From a phage: a stretch of 64,000 nt of DNA. Shown one piece after another: positions 17,838 to 55,412 of this stretch (position 1 is its first letter; the number at the start of each line of letters is the position of its first letter). The notes under the pieces were generated by a model. That model searched no databases, was not told where the DNA came from, and worked only from the letters and a program-made list of their open reading frames with translations. Location: the sequence record PZ445530.1; one strand, 5' to 3'. The translations under genes were made by a program, and so were the position numbers.

Positions 17838-19319
17838 TTACTTAGCGTACTCGATTAATTCCACAGTTTTACCAAAGCTAGGGATATAATTTTTATTATA
17901 CCCTTCGGTTAGAACCCATAAAGTATCGTACTTTTTCCACTTGTTGTCAACAGCCTTTTGTTCAAAGTTATGCTCAAAGTATAGGTCGGTCAGGACGATG
18001 ACATCTTTTGCATTTGGTATGTTGGCATCCAGATACTCGAACACGCAAGCAGCTGTTGTTCCCCATGTTGAGTGGACCTCATAGTTGATCATTTCGTCTA
18101 TGTTGCCGCGAGTGTATACTTTAACCTCTCCAACCTCAGTTGACCAACAGAACATTGTAACCTTAAACTCTTTATACAGATTGCACAATCCGGTGATTTC
18201 ATTGAACATTTTCTTTAAAGTTCTTTGAGAGATCGAGCCAGAAACGTCTAAAGCCACCACAATATCTATAGTGTTTTCCGGATTACGACCAGGAACAATA
18301 ACGTGCTGGTTCTTGTTTATAGCCCCAACTTTTCGCATTGTGCTGGTCAAAGACCCAGATCGGCGACCAGGTTTTCTGTAGGTCAGTTCGGCCTTTCTTT
18401 TAGACAACATACGTTGCTTAATGATGTCTATATAGTTGATTACAGGCTTACCTCTGTTCTTGACAAACTCACGCACCGCCTCAGGGCAACGGCCTCCGGA
18501 CGCTTGCATTGCTGCCTCCAGCATATCACCAGAGTCCTGCATGGCCTGATCTTTATCAGATTGGCTGATTACAGGTTGTGGCTGATCATACCCCATAGCC
18601 TTTCCAAGATTATCACTGGTGCCACCGTTCCCACTCATGTGATCATCGGTTTGTCGCTTATCACTTTGAGAGTTCTCACCTTTACCGTTCTTACTTTTAC
18701 CGTTATTCTGATCTCTTTGCTTATCAAGAACTGCATAAACGTTCTCAGCAATCCATCCATGAAACTTCATGTCGCAGTAGCAGCTGGCTAAGAAGCCAAA
18801 AGGCTTACCTTTCATGAACGTAGTGCTTTTCCCCTTCGGGAAGAAAACACAAGGAGGTTTGCTAAAGTCAACCACAAGGCCTGTGTTGATAACGTGATCA
18901 CAAGCAATATTGAACAGTTCCGGCTCAAAGCTTTTACCACGGACTAGGTGATCACAGATAATATGCCCCACCTCATGTGACAGAAGGAAGGCCACCTCTT
19001 TCACAGATTTTGGGGAATAGAAAACTTCAGCCATCTCAAACTGCTCGTCAGTTAGAGAAGCCTTAAGAATAGCCTTGCGTTCATCAGCCAATCCCATAAT
19101 GAACTCAGGACTGTAATAGATGCGTTTATGGTCGGTTGCCATGGTGGAGCACCATGTGTGGTTTTCTACGAACTGCAACCCTGACAGTAGTGTGCCATAA
19201 AACGGCAGCTTTTCAAGGAGATACATACGTGCAGCCTGCAACATTCTCAGGGCATCATCTTTCTGCGAGGCAATGATTTCTGAACTTCTGCTATCCATTA
19301 AAACTCCAGAAGGGGCCAT
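17838..19319 (-). CDS. VWA-domain protein with N-terminal HExxH metallopeptidase-like motif
   Basis: HEVGHIICDH zinc-binding signature; C-terminal MIDAS-like IVVALDVSGSIS. Confidence 0.7.
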   Translation of the reverse strand: MAPSGVLMDSRSSEIIASQKDDALRMLQAARMYLLEKLPFYGTLLSGLQFVENHTWCSTMATDHKRIYYSPEFIMGLADERKAILKASLTDEQFEMAEVFYSPKSVKEVAFLLSHEVGHIICDHLVRGKSFEPELFNIACDHVINTGLVVDFSKPPCVFFPKGKSTTFMKGKPFGFLASCYCDMKFHGWIAENVYAVLDKQRDQNNGKSKNGKGENSQSDKRQTDDHMSGNGGTSDNLGKAMGYDQPQPVISQSDKDQAMQDSGDMLEAAMQASGGRCPEAVREFVKNRGKPVINYIDIIKQRMLSKRKAELTYRKPGRRSGSLTSTMRKVGAINKNQHVIVPGRNPENTIDIVVALDVSGSISQRTLKKMFNEITGLCNLYKEFKVTMFCWSTEVGEVKVYTRGNIDEMINYEVHSTWGTTAACVFEYLDANIPNAKDVIVLTDLYFEHNFEQKAVDNKWKKYDTLWVLTEGYNKNYIPSFGKTVELIEYAK

Positions 19320-19331
19320 TGGCCCCTGTCA

Positions 19332-20126
19332 TTATTTAACGTGTTTGAAAATACCTGCCAACTCGGTCATTGTCATGCGGGTGGTCTTCATAAGATCTGT
19401 CATAGCTTTCTCCATAATTGGAGATACTACCATAAAGTTTCCTTTAGTGAAACCTTTATTCCAGTCGGTCACCAACAGGGGTTTAAGTCCAGCTCCAAGA
19501 CGTTCACCAGTTAAAGCACAGCATTTGCGAATATACGAACTCTTAAATTGGCTGAACGACAGATCAACTTTCATACCTACATCGTAGAACGTTTGACAAT
19601 AGAAAGTGTAAGCTTTGGCAATCTCAACATCATCAGGTAGTGCAGGAACCTCTTCTGTAAGCTCCTCTTCGACCTCCTGAGTCTCTTTTTCCTCTTCATG
19701 CACCTGTTGCGTCATTTCTTCAATCTCTTCTGTGATAGGCTCGTTTACAATGTCGGAAATGTGCTTCTTGGGTGCACGATAAGTAACTTTAGACATCGGT
19801 AGCATATCTTCCTCCTCTTCTTCGTCAAAGAGTGCTAGTTTATCCTCTTCCGTTCCATATTGCAAGATGAAATCTTCAAAAGTATAATCACCTTTCAATT
19901 TCTCCATACGCTCTTCGCTCAGGTGGAGCATCATCTGCTGGACAATTTTTCGATCAGTTTCGTCTTTAATCAAGACTGCAGTCTTTTTATCTACCAGACA
20001 GTCCTTTAGAGAGTTGCATCTCAATCCCACCACACAACAGTTATCAACCGCATAAGGACCTTCATCATCTATCCGCTCCAGAGATGGGTAGAAAGGATTC
20101 CCCAGCCCGTTTTCATCTGTGTGCAT
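19332..20126 (-). CDS. acidic hypothetical protein (264 aa; possible internal start at 19796)
   Basis: Glu-rich central region; contains internal MSKVTYRA encoded by a 27-nt sequence identical to the start of gene 21639-21995. Confidence 0.5.
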   Translation of the reverse strand: MHTDENGLGNPFYPSLERIDDEGPYAVDNCCVVGLRCNSLKDCLVDKKTAVLIKDETDRKIVQQMMLHLSEERMEKLKGDYTFEDFILQYGTEEDKLALFDEEEEEDMLPMSKVTYRAPKKHISDIVNEPITEEIEEMTQQVHEEEKETQEVEEELTEEVPALPDDVEIAKAYTFYCQTFYDVGMKVDLSFSQFKSSYIRKCCALTGERLGAGLKPLLVTDWNKGFTKGNFMVVSPIMEKAMTDLMKTTRMTMTELAGIFKHVK

Positions 20127-20381
20127 GTCAAAAGGTATAAGGGTATAGTCGCATACTCCATCTCCTAAAAGTTTTTTACCAAATAGGAGATATTCTTCCC
20201 ATGACAGGTCGAACTCTATATCTCGTTTCCGTGCGTTATTCTGTTTGCGTCTATATTTTTGAGCAAGCGCTCTAACTCTTCTGGTGTATAATATTTTTCA
20301 AGATTCATGAGTCGTCTCTCGTGCTCTGTAAGTGAAGAAATCGTATCAATTGTCTCAACAGATGTCAACATCAAAAACGTG

Positions 20382-20410
20382 TTGACTTTACTCTAACTCC
20401 ACAATATAGT
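20382..20410 (+). promoter_or_regulatory. sigma70-like promoter for gene at 20451
   Basis: TTGACT - 17 bp - TATAGT in divergent intergenic region. Confidence 0.5.
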
Positions 20411-20450
20411 GCACCCATTCGAAAGAAAACTAACATAGGAGCACTTACTT

Positions 20451-21350
20451 ATGGCAAATCTTAACAGTTTTAGTACGCGGTGGAAACAGGACATAACAAC
20501 CAATCTTTCAGCTGGGGACATCCTTTCTGCAATTTACGAGGCTTTAGATGATAAAGCTACTTCAAAAGCGGTTTGTACCAACCCATTAATTCCTATAGTG
20601 ATGAAGGTTATTGAGCGTAGATTGGTATCTGGGTCTAATAAGTGGACATATTTAGATAATGAAGGACACACCTATTCCAATGGGTATGTCGATATAAAAG
20701 TAGAATACGCGGTATCATACCGCCGGAGCGGTTCTGTAACTTTCAACTTCTCTGGAGGTTTTCGATCTCTGGCTACCTCACCTTTTGTTTCCTCAGAGGA
20801 GAAGTATGAGCTGCCATTTCTTTGGATGATGGCTAACGCGACAGGAAAAACCCCCGTTAGCATCCGAGTAAAATACAACTACAACGGATCTAGTAAGATC
20901 TATGCCGAAAGTGTCTCAGCAAGTTTTTATTTTGTGATGGGGGATGGAATCCTCAAACATATAAAGATGTGCGATATGCATGATGTTATAAATGAAGTGA
21001 CTGATAAGAATGTTCTAGTGAAAGACCTCAACAATTTTTATACACCCGGAGACTATTACGTCAGCCGTCCACTGTGCATCTTTAATGCCGCACACCCTCT
21101 AGGTGAGTATTTGATCGCCAATAGCGATATTGCCAATAACCGCTTCGAGGTAGCAAGAGTTCAGAATGAGGTATTGACATCTTGCAAGAGCGGTGATAAG
21201 TTTACCGAAGAAGAGATGGGTGTTTTAGAAATGATGGGATATAAGTGTAGCCTTTGGGTAGATGAGGTGTTCAATGATTGCATCTATGGACAGGATATTT
21301 ACCCATTAAAGAAGTATACTGATTCCAGTTTAATTTACGCGGAGATTTGA
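20451..21350 (+). CDS. hypothetical protein (299 aa)
   Basis: RBS taggagc before ATG. Confidence 0.55.
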   Translation: MANLNSFSTRWKQDITTNLSAGDILSAIYEALDDKATSKAVCTNPLIPIVMKVIERRLVSGSNKWTYLDNEGHTYSNGYVDIKVEYAVSYRRSGSVTFNFSGGFRSLATSPFVSSEEKYELPFLWMMANATGKTPVSIRVKYNYNGSSKIYAESVSASFYFVMGDGILKHIKMCDMHDVINEVTDKNVLVKDLNNFYTPGDYYVSRPLCIFNAAHPLGEYLIANSDIANNRFEVARVQNEVLTSCKSGDKFTEEEMGVLEMMGYKCSLWVDEVFNDCIYGQDIYPLKKYTDSSLIYAEI

Positions 21351-21352
21351 CT

Positions 21353-21625
21353 ATGATGAAGTCATGTGGTAGTGTATATTATGTTGGTGAGAATGTTCAG
21401 GCAGATAGTGTGTGGAAATCCATTAAGTCCACCACCGATGATGCCTTTCTGAGCGGGTTATGTTTTCCCAGCCCAGGGGACACTCTCCCTTACCCTGGAG
21501 ATTTTGTTGTCAACAAGATGGACGGTTATACCGTGTGCCTGATGGTTGAAAAAATCTTTTTAGACACTAGACACAATCACCGTCTTGTGTTAAAATTTCA
21601 AGAATGTAAAATGACAATTGCCTAA
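21353..21625 (+). CDS. hypothetical protein (about 90 aa)
   Basis: First in-frame ATG of track ORF 21347-21625. Confidence 0.45.
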   Translation: MMKSCGSVYYVGENVQADSVWKSIKSTTDDAFLSGLCFPSPGDTLPYPGDFVVNKMDGYTVCLMVEKIFLDTRHNHRLVLKFQECKMTIA

Positions 21626-21638
21626 GGAGACCTTGCCG

Positions 21639-21995
21639 ATGTCTAAAGTTACTTATCGTGCAGCTATTTACTGCAATGAACACCCAATCAATAATGATGG
21701 TCACTGCCTTTTTAAAGAAAATCAATTGGGCTGTATTGTCCTCCCTGATGAAGGGGAAGGTTATCTGATTGCGTTGACAGGGTTTGAACCTGAAGCTCTG
21801 GAAGCCAATCTTGACTACCTGGTAGAGGAGGGTGCTGCAGACCTGGTTGCCAATGGCCTCTCCATAAGCCTTGACGAAGTGGAGCGCTTCATGGGCAATT
21901 ACCGTGTAGTGCGTGAGTTTACTGTCGAGATGGAAACTCCCGAGTGGGGTAGCCATGAAACTAATGCCGAAGAAAAAGAAGAGGAGGTAGAATAA
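21639..21995 (+). CDS. hypothetical protein, N-terminus MSKVTYRA
   Basis: AAGGAG RBS 7 nt before ATG at 21639 (track start 21618 is an upstream alternative). Confidence 0.5.
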   Translation: MSKVTYRAAIYCNEHPINNDGHCLFKENQLGCIVLPDEGEGYLIALTGFEPEALEANLDYLVEEGAADLVANGLSISLDEVERFMGNYRVVREFTVEMETPEWGSHETNAEEKEEEVE

Positions 21996-22252
21996 TGAAA
22001 GTGCAGATCTTGACTAATGCCGAGAAGATGTTTATTGAAGATACACCTTTTGAAGCTGGTGAGCTACAGTTCGTTTATTTTGTTGACTTAGATAAGGTGT
22101 TTCCTGCACTGAATCTAGGTTTGGATGAAGTTCCTCATAAGGTTTTGTGCCAAGTTGTTCGTGCCTTAGCGGCAGAGGGGGAGTTCCACACCCTTCAAGA
22201 TATCCAGACCTACGGGTATCTTGAACTACAACGAGAAGAAGAGGTGGACTGA
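21995..22252 (+). CDS. hypothetical protein (85 aa)
   Basis: GAGGAGG RBS; ATGA overlap with upstream stop. Confidence 0.45.
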   Translation: MKVQILTNAEKMFIEDTPFEAGELQFVYFVDLDKVFPALNLGLDEVPHKVLCQVVRALAAEGEFHTLQDIQTYGYLELQREEEVD

Positions 22253-22254
22253 TA

Positions 22255-22635
22255 ATGGCTCAGTGGAAGACAACAGTTGACCTTCATGATCAGTGGTTAG
22301 GACGCATCACTGAAGACGGGAAGCTAGTGGAGTGGGACAATAAGCATGTTAGCGAGTTGGCAAGTATTGTGGCTGGCAAGTTACGCTCCAAGTTCCCTGA
22401 ACAACTGGATCCTGATAGTTCAAAGTTCGATCCTGAGTTAGAGGATGTTGTATACTACTTCGACACCGTTGATGACTACGACGCGTGGTTTGCAGCACGG
22501 GAGCTTTACCCACAAGGCTCTGCTATGCGCCAGATGGAAGAAGATTATCCTCCGTGTGAGCAATTCAATAGTGCAATGACTTGCCTCTATGATTGGGCAG
22601 ATAAGAACCTTGTCTGGATTCGGACTGCATTTTAG
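22255..22635 (+). CDS. hypothetical protein (126 aa)
   Basis: ORF in track with upstream GAGG. Confidence 0.5.
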   Translation: MAQWKTTVDLHDQWLGRITEDGKLVEWDNKHVSELASIVAGKLRSKFPEQLDPDSSKFDPELEDVVYYFDTVDDYDAWFAARELYPQGSAMRQMEEDYPPCEQFNSAMTCLYDWADKNLVWIRTAF

Positions 22636-47900: not shown

Positions 47901-48114
47901 CTTTCGATAGGTATATTGTGCCACCTGGCGGGGCCGCTGTCAACACTTTTCAAAAAATTTTTCTAACCTGATGCGCTAACCGCTGCAACCTGGCGGGGCC
48001 AGCCTGGCAGGACCTAACTGACCAGGTAGGAGAGAATGAAGGCTTGTAAACCTGGTGGGCCTATGCTATAGGACAGGTAACAATTGAAGAGGAGGTACAA
48101 AAATAAAAGGTAAT

Positions 48115-49105: not shown

Positions 49106-49510
49106 ATGAATAAGAACGTACGCCGCATCATGAACGAACTGGCAAACGATGAAAAAATTATTGACATGCATTTATTCAACATTTGCCGCCGTTGTGTAAC
49201 ATATAACAACCGCGCCGCAAAAGCGCGTGAGATGAACGCAAAAGGCACCTTAAAGCCATTCCAGGTGGTGGTAAAGGCCATTAAAGATGTAACTAATACG
49301 GCAAACCAGGTACAGGGGAACACCAACGAGAGTACCAATATTGATCCGGCTTACATCATGAAACGGATCCGGACCTGCAAGAACAAAGAGCAAGTGTATA
49401 ATATCATAGACTGGTTGGATTCTATGGGCGATGTGGTTTACAATAGGTTTTCTGCAGCTATCGAGATCCAGCTTGACAGGTTGGACGGTAAAGTACTGAA
49501 AACTTACTAA
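49106..49510 (+). CDS. hypothetical protein (134 aa)
   Basis: ATG downstream of cassette. Confidence 0.5.
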   Translation: MNKNVRRIMNELANDEKIIDMHLFNICRRCVTYNNRAAKAREMNAKGTLKPFQVVVKAIKDVTNTANQVQGNTNESTNIDPAYIMKRIRTCKNKEQVYNIIDWLDSMGDVVYNRFSAAIEIQLDRLDGKVLKTY

Positions 49511-49512
49511 GT

Positions 49513-49558
49513 TTATTTTTAGATGGCCTTGACTTCAGGGCCATCAATAAAGTAAACT
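49513..49558 (+). promoter_or_regulatory. palindrome-embedded promoter element, copy 1
   Basis: TTATTTTTA-GATGGCC-TTGACT-TCAG-GGCCATC-...-TAAACT: -35 inside loop of 7-bp inverted repeat, 18-bp spacer to -10. Confidence 0.5.
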
Positions 49559-49790: not shown

Positions 49791-50132
49791 ATGACTACTA
49801 TGACCGCCGCAGAAAAAGCTATGCAGATCGCCGCGCTGAAAAAACAGATCGCAGACCTTGAGAACAAGATCGACAACTTTGAAATCGACGAGGACAAGTA
49901 CGACGAAAACTATGATGAATGGTTAGACGAGATCTACGGCGAAATTATGATCGGAAACATTTCTTTTCTTCCGTCGCGTATCCTCAAGGAGCTAGATCCT
50001 ATCGCTTACCGCTGCGGATTTAGCGACTACATCGACAGCCTGGATATTGAGGAAGATGAAGAATACCAGGAACTACAGACAGAGTTAGAAGAAGCAAAAG
50101 AAGAGCTTGCGGAGCTGGAAGAAAACGAGTAA
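49791..50132 (+). CDS. acidic coiled-coil-like protein (113 aa)
   Basis: ATG downstream of cassette; Glu/Asp-rich. Confidence 0.5.
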   Translation: MTTMTAAEKAMQIAALKKQIADLENKIDNFEIDEDKYDENYDEWLDEIYGEIMIGNISFLPSRILKELDPIAYRCGFSDYIDSLDIEEDEEYQELQTELEEAKEELAELEENE

Positions 50133-50133
50133 G

Positions 50134-50179
50134 ATTATTTTTAGATGGCCTTGACTCCAGGGCCATCAATAAAGTAAAC
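50134..50179 (+). promoter_or_regulatory. palindrome-embedded promoter element, copy 2
   Basis: Same 46-bp element as 49513 with one loop substitution. Confidence 0.5.
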
Positions 50180-50221
50180 TTTATACTGTTAACACTGAAC
50201 TAATTCAGAGGAGTTAAAACC

Positions 50222-50467
50222 ATGGCAGCACTAATCACCAAATATTATGCCCCTACCAACACCAAAAGCGCCCGTATCATGGTAAAAGGCTTCGGACGTA
50301 AAAAGGTTTACACCTGGGATTATGCCTTAGACATGGAAGACAACTACACCAACGCGATGACCGATTTTATTAATGATCTGAACACGCGGATCTTGACAAA
50401 TTATAAAATTACCGATATTGCCTATATAGGGGAAGGCGGGATCTGTTTTGTCGGTATCGTCAAATAA
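50222..50467 (+). CDS. hypothetical protein (81 aa)
   Basis: RBS gaggagtt before ATG. Confidence 0.5.
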   Translation: MAALITKYYAPTNTKSARIMVKGFGRKKVYTWDYALDMEDNYTNAMTDFINDLNTRILTNYKITDIAYIGEGGICFVGIVK

Positions 50468-50542
50468 GCTGTTTTTTCGGTGGTCCTGGTAGCAGGGCCA
50501 TCTATAAAGATAGTTTATCAACACAATGAAAGGAGAAAGTAC

Positions 50543-53650: not shown

Positions 53651-53850
53651 ATGAGCAACAATATCCGCGTTATTAACTTCAAAAAGAAGAAAAAATTGCC
53701 GTGCTGATTGACGGTCAAGAAATCTTCAAGGGCGACTATGAAGATCATCAAACGGCGATTAGTATCACTCGCGTGATTGGTTATCATAATTTCTACCCCC
53801 AAGGCGCTGAGGCAGCAGTTAAACGAATCAAAGAGATTGTAGGCCTGTAA
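53651..53850 (+). CDS. small hypothetical protein; frame interrupted at an A-rich tract (about 53683-53696)
   Basis: Cassette ATG at 53651 hits a stop after 17 codons; a 51-codon ORF continues in another frame through stop at 53848-53850; one extra A in the run would fuse them. Confidence 0.35.
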
Positions 53851-53852
53851 AA

Positions 53853-53899
53853 TTTATTTTTAGATGGCCTTGACTTCAGGGCCATCGATAAAGTAAATT
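53853..53899 (+). promoter_or_regulatory. palindrome-embedded promoter element, copy 3
   Basis: TTATTTTTA-GATGGCC-TTGACT-TCAG-GGCCATC-...-TAAATT. Confidence 0.5.
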
Positions 53900-55154: not shown

Positions 55155-55388
55155 ATGATGGAACAAATTAAACGCGCCGAGGCTATTAATGGCAACGTGA
55201 TCTATTTTGTCAGCAAAAACGAAAAAGGCGTACCCTATGCGGCTGTAATAGTACAGCCTGACGGCGATTATTGGTGCACTGTGTACGGCGCTTATTCTTT
55301 TGGGCGTCCAGTGCATGATAAAATTTTGAAAGTAGCGAACCCTACCGGGAAAAATATTACAGCAGAAAAATTTTTTGAAAAGTGTTGA
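55155..55388 (+). CDS. hypothetical protein (77 aa)
   Basis: RBS aaagagagg. Confidence 0.5.
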   Translation: MMEQIKRAEAINGNVIYFVSKNEKGVPYAAVIVQPDGDYWCTVYGAYSFGRPVHDKILKVANPTGKNITAEKFFEKC

Positions 55389-55412
55389 CATGACCTTATA
55401 AGACTGTAGAAT
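55385..55412 (+). promoter_or_regulatory. early-type sigma70-like promoter (cassette 10) followed by 5' hairpin
   Basis: TTGACA - 16 bp - TAGAAT; hairpin GGGGGGC-AACAA-GCCCCCC at 55423-55441; CACCAACCACAAAGAGGATAAAAA leader. Confidence 0.55.

Follow-up and report, generated by a model that had tools for sequence, protein, structure and literature searches.

The invertible tail-fibre segments of phage Mu (the G segment, with Gin) and phage P1 (the C segment, with Cin) have inverted sites of 26-34 bp. Diversity-generating retroelements possess a reverse transcriptase and repeats of about 100 nt or more, with adenine-specific differences between the repeats. In phage T4, according to work discussed in PMC3016281 (Ripley 1982; Schultz, Carver & Drake 2006), templated mutations arise through sequential strand switching to an imperfect repeat located elsewhere. 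Homogenisation of the arms of inverted repeats through template switching has been documented (PMC8604942), the yeast survey having considered spacers of up to 70 nt (PMC8604942), and the two sites need not be close together in the linear sequence (PMC7954356). The locus described here lies in a 64,000-nt stretch of phage DNA (record PZ445530.1; the window), which belongs to an rV5-like Escherichia coli phage of the genus Vequintavirus. Two divergent genes in the window share a perfect inverted repeat, which is most likely a copying scar: the start of one early gene pasted into the dispensable linker of a neighbouring gene.

The inverted repeat and its two genes

The sequence CCGATGTCTAAAGTTACTTATCGTGCA occurs exactly twice in the window, at 21636-21662 on the plus strand and as its reverse complement at 19773-19799, which reproduces the perfect 27-nt inverted repeat reported at these positions in a preliminary description of the same DNA. 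A repeat search of the window gave two arms of 27 nt that are 100% complementary and have 1836 nt between them. Identity between the arms stops sharply at both edges, and the window contains neither a longer repeat that extends beyond the 27 nt nor a third copy of the 27-mer. In phage Murica the repeat is 29 nt long. No matching pair was obtained in 100 dinucleotide-preserving shuffles with up to three mismatches tolerated; the repeat is real and far beyond chance. The features of the locus are as follows.

19332..20308, minus strand: putative Srd-like / EndoVII-HNH-like two-domain early gene, homolog of rV5 gp11 (PHROG 3118, Murica alignment)
19701..19860, minus strand: segment of the Srd-like gene linker that carries the patch, from comparison of carrier and non-carrier alleles
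19773..19799, minus strand: left arm, the derived copy in the Srd-like gene linker, reading P-M-S-K-V-T-Y-R-A in frame
20309..20450, both strands: predicted divergent (bidirectional) early promoter region, TTGACT-17-TATAGT (plus) and TTGACA-17-TACGAT (minus)
20451..21625, plus strand: homologs of gp10 (299 aa) and gp9 (90-92 aa), PHROGs 12338 and 12847, function unknown
21624..21629, plus strand: AAGGAG ribosome-binding sequence of the ORF8 homolog, 9 nt 5' of the ATG
21636..21662, plus strand: right arm, the inferred donor, at the native 5' end of the rV5 ORF8 homolog
21639..21995, plus strand: homolog of rV5 ORF8 (118 aa, function unknown); the copied tract probably came from its start

The left arm is located within a gene whose full-length product in phage Murica has 325 aa, and the octapeptide MSKVTYRA is internal in this protein, at around residue 172. 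In a profile search the protein matched PHROG 3118 over residues 3-324 (E = 6.5e-113), with weaker matches to PHROG 1400 (Srd anti-sigma factor) and to PHROGs 4592 and 1035 (endonuclease VII), and the rV5 genome paper lists gp11 as a probable Srd homolog. The full-length profile match assigns the host gene of the left arm to the Srd-like / EndoVII-HNH-like early proteins, as judged by sequence similarity. A Pfam search with six local proteins, including the Srd-like protein and the gp10 and gp9 homologs, returned no matches. The preliminary description had placed the left arm in a minus-strand ORF at 19332-20126; the arm is indeed in frame there, but the true extent of the gene is 19332-20308. 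The shorter, 264-aa ORF arises because the window copy of the gene is interrupted by a 1-nt deletion which shifts the frame in a run of five T residues at 20256-20260 on the plus strand (A5 versus A6 in Murica gp11).

Comparison across five genera indicates that the Srd-like protein consists of a conserved N-domain and a conserved C-domain with an acidic, hypervariable linker between them. The linker, which bears the patch, cannot be aligned between genera, and carrier alleles (those with the left arm) have 69-80% identity to non-carrier alleles in 19701..19860 as against 90-100% in the domains on either side. The idea that two genes had fused and that MSKVTYRA marks a former start was rejected, since five Vequintavirinae genera all have the two-domain protein at full length.

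The right arm comprises the final 3 nt of the ribosome-binding-site spacer followed by codons 1-8 (MSKVTYRA) of the ORF8 homolog. The AAGGAG sequence, which is the annotated ribosome-binding site in Murica, is outside the copied tract. MSKVTYRA is kept at the start of ORF8 in all 18 relatives examined, and the nucleotides of the arm vary among relatives at synonymous positions (TCT/TCA/TCC and GTT/GTC/GCT) and in the spacer (CCG/CCA/TCA/CTA/CCT). The ORF8 homolog matches PHROG 12908, of unknown function, and its protein family is confined to Vequintavirus (117 records). In sequence the Srd-like gene and the ORF8 homolog are otherwise unrelated, as the preliminary description had stated.

The segment between the arms consists of the divergent promoters, gp10, gp9 and the part of the Srd-like gene that encodes the N-domain. 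The predicted promoter region separates the Srd-like gene from the gp10 homolog inside the 1836-nt spacer, and a promoter, P11, is annotated in rV5. The gp10 and gp9 homologs are the genes which intervene between the arms and have no part in the repeat itself.

Distribution and polarity of the copy

A count of the 27-mer in related genomes, as the preliminary description had proposed, separates the two arms. The ORF8 arm was found with 0-3 substitutions in 18 of the 18 related loci examined, but the copy in the Srd-like linker is carried by only 28 of 118 related records and is missing from the other 90 (76%), rV5 among them; 13 of the 18 relatives examined lack it within six mismatches. The repeat is therefore not conserved among related phages, an outcome that the preliminary description had itself listed as refuting and that here counts against the functional readings. 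About 26 independently sequenced phages, Murica, FFH2 and nomine among them, and one gut-metagenome contig have the same carrier allele, and the carrier linker is present in at least three genomic backgrounds. Exact-match scans for the 27-mer gave no match in IMG/VR, and for a 24-mer gave one match in IMG/VR and two in metagenomes, with the parental context in those whose flanks were checked; metagenome matches L019 and L020 have a single copy each. There was no match in an exact-match scan of GTDB genome contigs, and the repeat sequence was not found in a collection of E. coli genomes.

In place of the left arm, the 90 non-carriers have a segment that makes the linker 12 nt longer (PMQDFKNFMADRAANK) and shares with the ORF8 start only two short in-frame microhomologies, ACCGATG and ATCGTGCAGC. 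Thirteen sampled non-carriers have CC[A/G]ATG-CAGGAyTTTAAAAAyTTyATGGCnrAk-CGTGsA at the position of the left arm, with a 25-nt core unlike ORF8. For non-carriers in general, the sole matches to ORF8 are CC[A/G]ATG and ATCGTG(C/G)AGC; in rV5 and ECP2303 they take the form of ACCGATG (7 nt) and CT[G/T]ATCGTGCAGC (12 of 13 positions), and in the FV3 group they are ACCAATG and ATCGTG. Microhomology was present at both tract junctions in the ancestral state.

The long form of the linker is found in two deeply divergent allele groups as well as in the most distant relative (88.8% identity), and the short, carrier form is one tight cluster (at least 97.5% identity) that has indels in common with the FV3 allele group. 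Because the carrier allele nests within the non-carrier alleles, the copy is derived, and by this comparison of alleles the perfect repeat is confined to one lineage, every other allele group having the long form. The reverse polarity, with the long form templated from elsewhere, was also considered and was rejected, as no donor, and no second copy of the long-form segment that could act as a template for the reverse change, was found in the window.

A single ORF8-derived tract, (C)TACCGATGTCTAAAGTTACTTATCGTGCA, explains four or five of the seven carrier-specific changes around the site. ORF8 does not account for two substitutions that directly follow the tract (GCC to CCC and AAC to AAG), and neither the window nor the E. 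coli genomes yielded another donor for them; they may have accumulated as normal divergence along the long branch that leads to the carrier allele, or may be mistakes made in the event itself. An upstream change of TC to CT is fully explained only with a CCTACCG donor; CCTACCA and CTTACCG are the forms present in the sampled donors. The two arms differ from each other in Alma (ORF8 arm CCTATGTCTAAAGCT...) and in ECP32 (CCT... versus TCA...). Since the arms drift separately in these phages, there is no selection for their identity.

A probable templated mutation and the alternatives

The repeat most likely records one templated mutation that took place in the past in a single lineage of rV5-like phages. 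Among the readings put forward in the preliminary description, a recombination footprint is the one which the sampled alleles bear out, with ancestral and derived states both represented and a derived tract that is identical to the 5' end of ORF8 and bounded by microhomology. The ancestral Srd-like linker possessed two short in-frame inverted microhomologies, ACCGATG and (CT-)ATCGTGCAGC, to the 5' end of ORF8, which lies on the opposite strand at a distance of 1.84 kb. While DNA was being replicated or a break repaired, a strand end growing in the linker would have mis-annealed at one of these microhomologies, copied the stretch of the ORF8 start between them and rejoined its proper template at the second. 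The outcome was 13 nt of ORF8 sequence in place of 25 nt of linker, converting an imperfect inverted repeat to a perfect one of 29-30 nt, and a later A-to-G change upstream of ORF8 left the 27 nt seen in this window. The Srd-like reading frame was kept because the net change is -12 nt. The linker presumably tolerated the change and the allele persisted, and the carrier allele has since passed between genome backgrounds via ordinary homologous recombination.

The allele comparison shows the ancestral and derived states, the direction of the change, the microhomologies and the absence of maintenance; the molecular route, by inference, could have been either a replicative template switch or a recombinational ectopic conversion. 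The 1.84-kb spacing, which is far greater than in classic quasipalindrome mutagenesis, counts against a templated mutation; across 1.8 kb, a switch between molecules (cross-fork or sister-strand) or recombination would be the more plausible route. Quasi-repeat substrates are common, and the window has 112 pairs of an inverted 10-mer with a nearby 7-mer, 10 of them within 3 kb. The carrier linker is probably near-neutral, though its presence in at least three backgrounds could instead reflect positive selection.

It is also conceivable, though unlikely, that the copy confers ORF8-type initiation on the Srd-like mRNA, which would give a C-terminal-domain-only isoform that begins with MSKVTYRA or place both genes under a common translational regulator. 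The two mRNAs are identical in sense from -3 to +24 around an in-frame ATG, the acidic linker provides a GGAGGA upstream of this ATG, and the carrier linker occurs in several genome backgrounds. The carrier-specific TC to CT change, moreover, creates a weak promoter-like sequence, TTGACG-16-TATGCT, at 19828-19801 on the minus strand, which ends 4 nt 5' of the ATG; promoter-like matches, however, are not enriched (8 versus 5.8 +/- 2.4 expected). The ribosome-binding sequence of ORF8 was not copied, and the GGAGG of the linker is 14 nt from the ATG at 19796 and better placed, at 5 nt, for an upstream ATG at 19805-19803 that is found in non-carriers too. The Met codon at 19796 is itself older than the patch, being already present in non-carriers (CC[A/G]ATG), and other genera have no conserved internal Met. 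RNA folding gave no structure signal (z = -1.1 and -0.2), with unremarkable z-scores for both arm contexts and for the ancestral linker, and no Rfam family matched in the window. These observations argue against the internal start at 19796 suggested in the preliminary description. Its further suggestion of a shared initiation region or N-terminal signal likewise lacks support, given an octapeptide that is internal to the protein, lies in a hypervariable linker and is missing from 76% of relatives, including rV5.

An inversion is very unlikely. Here the arms would let the 1.84-kb segment flip by means of a site-specific recombinase or homologous recombination, swapping the C-terminal half of the Srd-like protein and the body of ORF8 between expression contexts. 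The arms match perfectly and both genes read through them in frame, and the bidirectional promoter region in the spacer would keep every gene transcribed after a flip. A length of 27-29 bp, such as the arms have, is near the minimum for homologous recombination. Against inversion, all 116 full-length relatives, about 26 of which are carriers, align collinearly and in one piece to a 3.5-kb query, and a carrier metagenome contig (L018) has the parental arrangement. The arms also decay separately, as described above for Alma and ECP32, and most of the genus lacks the repeat. The rV5 genome paper makes no mention of an integrase, recombinase or invertase, and no recombinase was among the best 25 of 69 PHROG families matched by the 27 large ORFs of the window. 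The junctions expected from a flip are Srd-N...GATATGCTA + 27-mer + GCTATTTACTGC and, on the side of the gp9 gene and the ribosome-binding site, ...AAGGAGACCTTR + 27-mer + CCCAAGAAGCAC (Srd-C). A flip, if it occurred, would yield a fusion of the Srd N-domain to the ORF8 body together with an Srd C-domain that starts with MSKVTYRA and uses the ribosome-binding site of ORF8 for its expression. That such a frame-preserving domain-swap switch, independent of a recombinase and born from a templated mutation, operates in this lytic phage, with isomers at appreciable frequency that differ in host takeover, is extremely doubtful.

There is likewise very little likelihood that the 27-mer is a shared cis-regulatory DNA or RNA site through which a small RNA, or a protein of the phage or the host, would bind and co-regulate the two divergent early units. 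Exact nucleotide identity on both early transcripts and a small dyad within the 27-mer (CGAT...ATCG) are consistent with such a site, but no more than about 24% of relatives have the second copy, relatives differ at synonymous and spacer sites even in the ORF8 arm, and further copies were found neither in the window nor in the E. coli genome collection or GTDB genome contigs. Chance or convergent similarity, or an assembly artefact, has next to no probability: the pre-existing microhomologies are all that favours it, against the empty shuffles, the 13 nt between the microhomologies that are identical to ORF8 sequence, and the recurrence of the allele in about 26 independently sequenced phages and a metagenome contig.

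Comparison with known systems

As a templated mutation, the locus reveals no new biological system, the process itself being already known. It would represent a clean, natural, long-range (1.8 kb) case in a phage, for which more than 100 genomes sample both the ancestral and the derived state, and it suggests that a single step can replace a run of neighbouring codons, nine residues long in this case. It also suggests how unrelated genes may come to share perfect inverted repeats that have no function, and short exact repeats that span start codons need not be regulatory or signal elements.

A diversity-generating retroelement is unlikely, as the repeat is 27 nt and perfect and no reverse-transcriptase family was among the best 25 of the 69 PHROG families. 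The invertible segments of Mu and P1 resemble this locus in having short inverted repeats within coding sequence, such that inversion would swap protein halves in frame; they differ in that here no invertase and no alternative orientation in 116 genomes were found, the repeat decays and is restricted to one lineage, and it lies in early genes, not in tail-fibre genes. Models of microhomology-mediated template switching in break-induced replication (MMBIR and FoSTeS), as presented in the citing work (PMC7954356), are similar in that short identity alone guides strand invasion, the template may be distant and inverted templated insertions are possible. They are, however, models for large eukaryotic rearrangements, whereas two precise switches would suffice here and nothing larger is rearranged.

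In quasipalindrome mutagenesis, described for E. coli (PMC7202029) and for yeast genes (PMC8604942), an imperfect inverted repeat is likewise made perfect, the tract has microhomology at each of its limits and a run of adjacent amino-acid replacements results in coding sequence. The spacers in the classic cases are a few to tens of nt, which makes a hairpin route possible, as compared with 1.8 kb here. The T4 mutations discussed in PMC3016281 were selected in the laboratory, whereas the present event is deduced from natural variation; its donor is inverted and 1.84 kb away, and reported tracts are typically smaller than this one (13 nt replaced, 29-30 nt identical in the end, net change -12 nt). 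The two are nevertheless alike in their setting, large lytic myoviruses that have replication machinery of their own, and in their product, a multi-nucleotide replacement identical to an ectopic donor.

The inverted repeat and its two genes

The DNA is from a Vequintavirus, an rV5-like myovirus that infects E. coli. A 3.5-kb region matches 120 records of the phage collection at 88-99% identity, 116 of them in a full-length, single collinear alignment. Sixteen records titled 'Campylobacter phage' are 94-98.5% identical to window 19000-22500, with Campylobacter jejuni as the stated host for 15 of them; this deposit series suggests rV5-like coliphages that are mislabelled or contaminating. The features discussed are as follows.

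17838-19319, minus strand: VWA/metallopeptidase-like neighbour gene
19332-20308, minus strand: Srd-like gene, homolog of rV5 gp11
19773-19799, minus strand: left arm of the repeat, in the linker of the Srd-like gene
19828-19801, minus strand: promoter-like TTGACG-16-TATGCT
20451-21350, plus strand: gp10 homolog
21353-21625: gp9
21636-21662, plus strand: right (ORF8) arm of the repeat
21639-21995, plus strand: ORF8 homolog

The preliminary description had claimed a perfect 27-nt inverted repeat, and this is borne out: CCGATGTCTAAAGTTACTTATCGTGCA occurs as the right arm and, exactly reverse-complemented, as the left. No further copy with up to three mismatches is found in the window, and no match arose in 100 dinucleotide-preserving shuffles. 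The repeat is real and non-random. Its arms are separated by 1836 nt, and identity is lost sharply at either end. The plus copy consists of the 3 nt preceding the ATG and codons 1-8 of the ORF8 homolog, which has AAGGAG 9 nt upstream of the ATG, while the minus copy is in frame with the minus-strand ORF (product P-MSKVTYRA).

The gp11 homolog, 325 aa in phage Murica, was described as a probable Srd homolog in the rV5 genome paper. Its protein matches PHROG 3118 (E 6.5e-113) and, more weakly, Srd anti-sigma and endonuclease VII families; a Pfam search gave no match. The gene is broken in the window by a 1-nt deletion (A5 instead of A6; plus-strand T-run 20256-20260), which is why a 264-aa ORF is seen. 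Among 17 scorable relatives (18 sequences with the window) the deletion is found in Alma alone, whose annotation likewise has a 264-aa ORF. The frameshift may reflect an error of sequencing, slippage that recurs at this run, or genuine inactivation of the gene. The ORF8 homolog (118 aa; PHROG 12908, of unknown function) is confined to Vequintavirus (117 records). In relatives, the gp10 homolog is commonly annotated 'putative alpha 1-3 fucosyltransferase', though it has no Pfam match and its sole PHROG is of unknown function, and some records name the VWA/metallopeptidase-like gene an 'anti-sigma factor' or an 'HNH endonuclease'; these annotations are inconsistent and weakly founded.

Derivation of the linker arm

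The two arms were compared across 17 related loci (87-99% identity) and one gut-metagenome contig. The ORF8 arm is found in all of them with 0-3 substitutions. Within this set, the left arm occurs only in the window, Murica, Alma, inoa, ECP32 and the metagenome contig (the carriers). The remaining 13 loci have at the same position a form 12 nt longer, CC[A/G]ATG-CAGGAyTTTAAAAAyTTyATGGCnrAk-CGTGsA-GCCAACAAr, whose product is PMQDFKNFMA(D/N/E)R(A/G)ANK. A collection-wide screen with a 106-nt query centred on the left arm split cleanly into 28 records with at least 97% identity and 90 with 60-80%, type phage rV5 among the latter. The left arm is therefore not conserved, which argues against the earlier suggestion of a shared functional element.

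The long form is present in the FV3 and rV5 allele groups, which are mutually distinct by linker indels, and the most distant relative has it too; short-form alleles make up one tight cluster with the FV3-group indels. This distribution indicates that the short form is derived. Two microhomologies with the ORF8 start, inverted and matched in frame, already exist in the ancestral linker of rV5 and ECP2303: ACCGATG (left) and CT[G/T]ATCGTGCAGC (right). In place of the 25 nt that separate them, the derived allele has the 13 nt that separate the same motifs in ORF8 (TCTAAAGTTACTT). A single ORF8-derived tract, (C)TACCGATGTCTAAAGTTACTTATCGTGCA, explains 4-5 of the 7 carrier-specific differences near the site: the exchange of the core, GTGGA becoming GTGCA, CCA becoming CCG, and TC to CT in one base or in both. 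In Murica the repeat is perfect over 29 nt; in the window it is down to 27 nt because an A upstream of ORF8 later became G. GCC to CCC and AAC to AAG, directly downstream of the tract, are not templated by ORF8, and no other donor for them was found in the window. The reverse change would need a donor, and the window contains no other copy of the long-form core to serve as one. Since quasi-repeat substrates are common in the window (112 inverted pairings of a 10-mer and a 7-mer close to it, 10 of which fall within 3 kb), the substrate needs no special explanation.

The repeat is most likely a lineage-specific footprint of templated ectopic copying from the ORF8 start to the Srd-like linker. 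A recombination footprint had been one of the options raised, and it is the best explanation, with a derived tract that matches the ORF8 start and microhomology at both junctions. ORF8-start sequence would have been copied into the linker between the two pre-existing microhomologies, making an imperfect inverted repeat perfect. The net change is -12 nt and keeps the reading frame of the Srd-like gene; the footprint is probably near-neutral.

The carrier linker is present in at least three genomic backgrounds, with FV3/ECP26-like flanks on either side in ECP32 and a different N-domain and intergenic region in inoa, which points to spread of the allele by homologous recombination, as in ordinary phage mosaicism. 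Its spread is compatible with a selective advantage, which the linker may confer. Local mosaicism is also seen at gp9 (window, loci L001, L013 and L015, and the metagenome contig L018). The window gp9 is 100% identical to that of MaxBurger and 91.9% identical to those of Murica, Alma and the metagenome contig, although in gp10 and the Srd-like gene, on either side, these three match the window at 99-100% identity. One recombination boundary lies close to the repeat's right arm.

Possible uses of the repeat, and other repeats

The evidence says that the repeat is neither maintained nor used. The arms drift independently: Alma has an ORF8 arm CCTATGTCTAAAGCT... and an unchanged linker arm, and in ECP32 the linker arm starts CCT and the ORF8 arm TCA. 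A shared regulatory site is very unlikely. Rfam returned no family for the window, RNA folding of both arm contexts gave nothing remarkable, and searches for the sequence in the E. coli genome collection and GTDB genome contigs gave no match. The promoter-like site (9/12 match) stops 4 nt short of the 19796 ATG, and its -10-like hexamer TATGCT is carrier-only, made by TC to CT from ancestral TATGTC. It is only a lead because such matches are not enriched in the region (8 versus 5.8 +/- 2.4 expected).

An internal start at 19796, or a shared initiation region, had been proposed for the in-frame ATG and is very unlikely: this ATG is older than the patch, its nearest GGAGG is poorly spaced at 14 nt upstream, and the ORF8 ribosome-binding sequence lies outside the copied tract. 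Between Vequintavirinae genera the patch-bearing linker is highly variable in length and sequence (almost missing in Av-05), with conserved domains on either side and an internal Met conserved in none. That the arms bound an invertible segment is very unlikely, as they drift independently and the spacer is inverted in none of the 116 full-length relatives or the metagenome contig; no integrase, recombinase or invertase is mentioned in the rV5 genome paper or found among the top 25 of the 69 PHROG families matched by the window's large ORFs.

Two other kinds of repeat were seen in the window.

47938-47964, minus strand, and 55364-55390, plus strand: second perfect 27-nt inverted repeat, AGAAAAATTTTTTGAAAAGTGTTGACA
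49508-49558, 50130-50180, 50465-50515 and 53849-53899, plus strand: 51-nt repeat family, 69-96% identity

Each AGAAAAATTTTTTGAAAAGTGTTGACA copy has an A/T-rich upstream element and a TTGACA -35 box, followed after 16-17 nt by a -10-like hexamer (CACAAT or TAGAAT). The pair have the appearance of a conserved promoter present twice, facing outward and with 7.4 kb between the copies, a candidate for a functional kind of repeat, unlike that at 19773/21636. The 51-nt repeats lie directly after the stop codons of small plus-strand ORFs and have a GATGGCC...GGCCATC stem-loop with TTGACT in the loop, then a TAAACT -10-like box; they resemble the promoter-stem-loop cassettes known between small early genes of T4-type phages.

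Relation to known templated mutation

An imperfect inverted repeat, microhomology at two junctions, several nucleotides replaced by an exact match to an ectopic donor, and a repeat that ends up perfect are together the signature of templated mutation. In yeast, inverted-repeat arms are homogenised in coding sequence with several adjacent amino-acid changes (PMC8604942), and the alternate template may be distant in linear sequence (PMC7954356). The spacing of 1.84 kb here is large for a switch through a hairpin of the classic kind, so an intermolecular switch (cross-fork or sister-strand), or ectopic conversion in recombination-dependent repair, would be favoured. The repeat is a fresh example of a mutational process already known, not a new system, and its main value is as a well-resolved natural case of templated mutation acting at long range as phages evolve.
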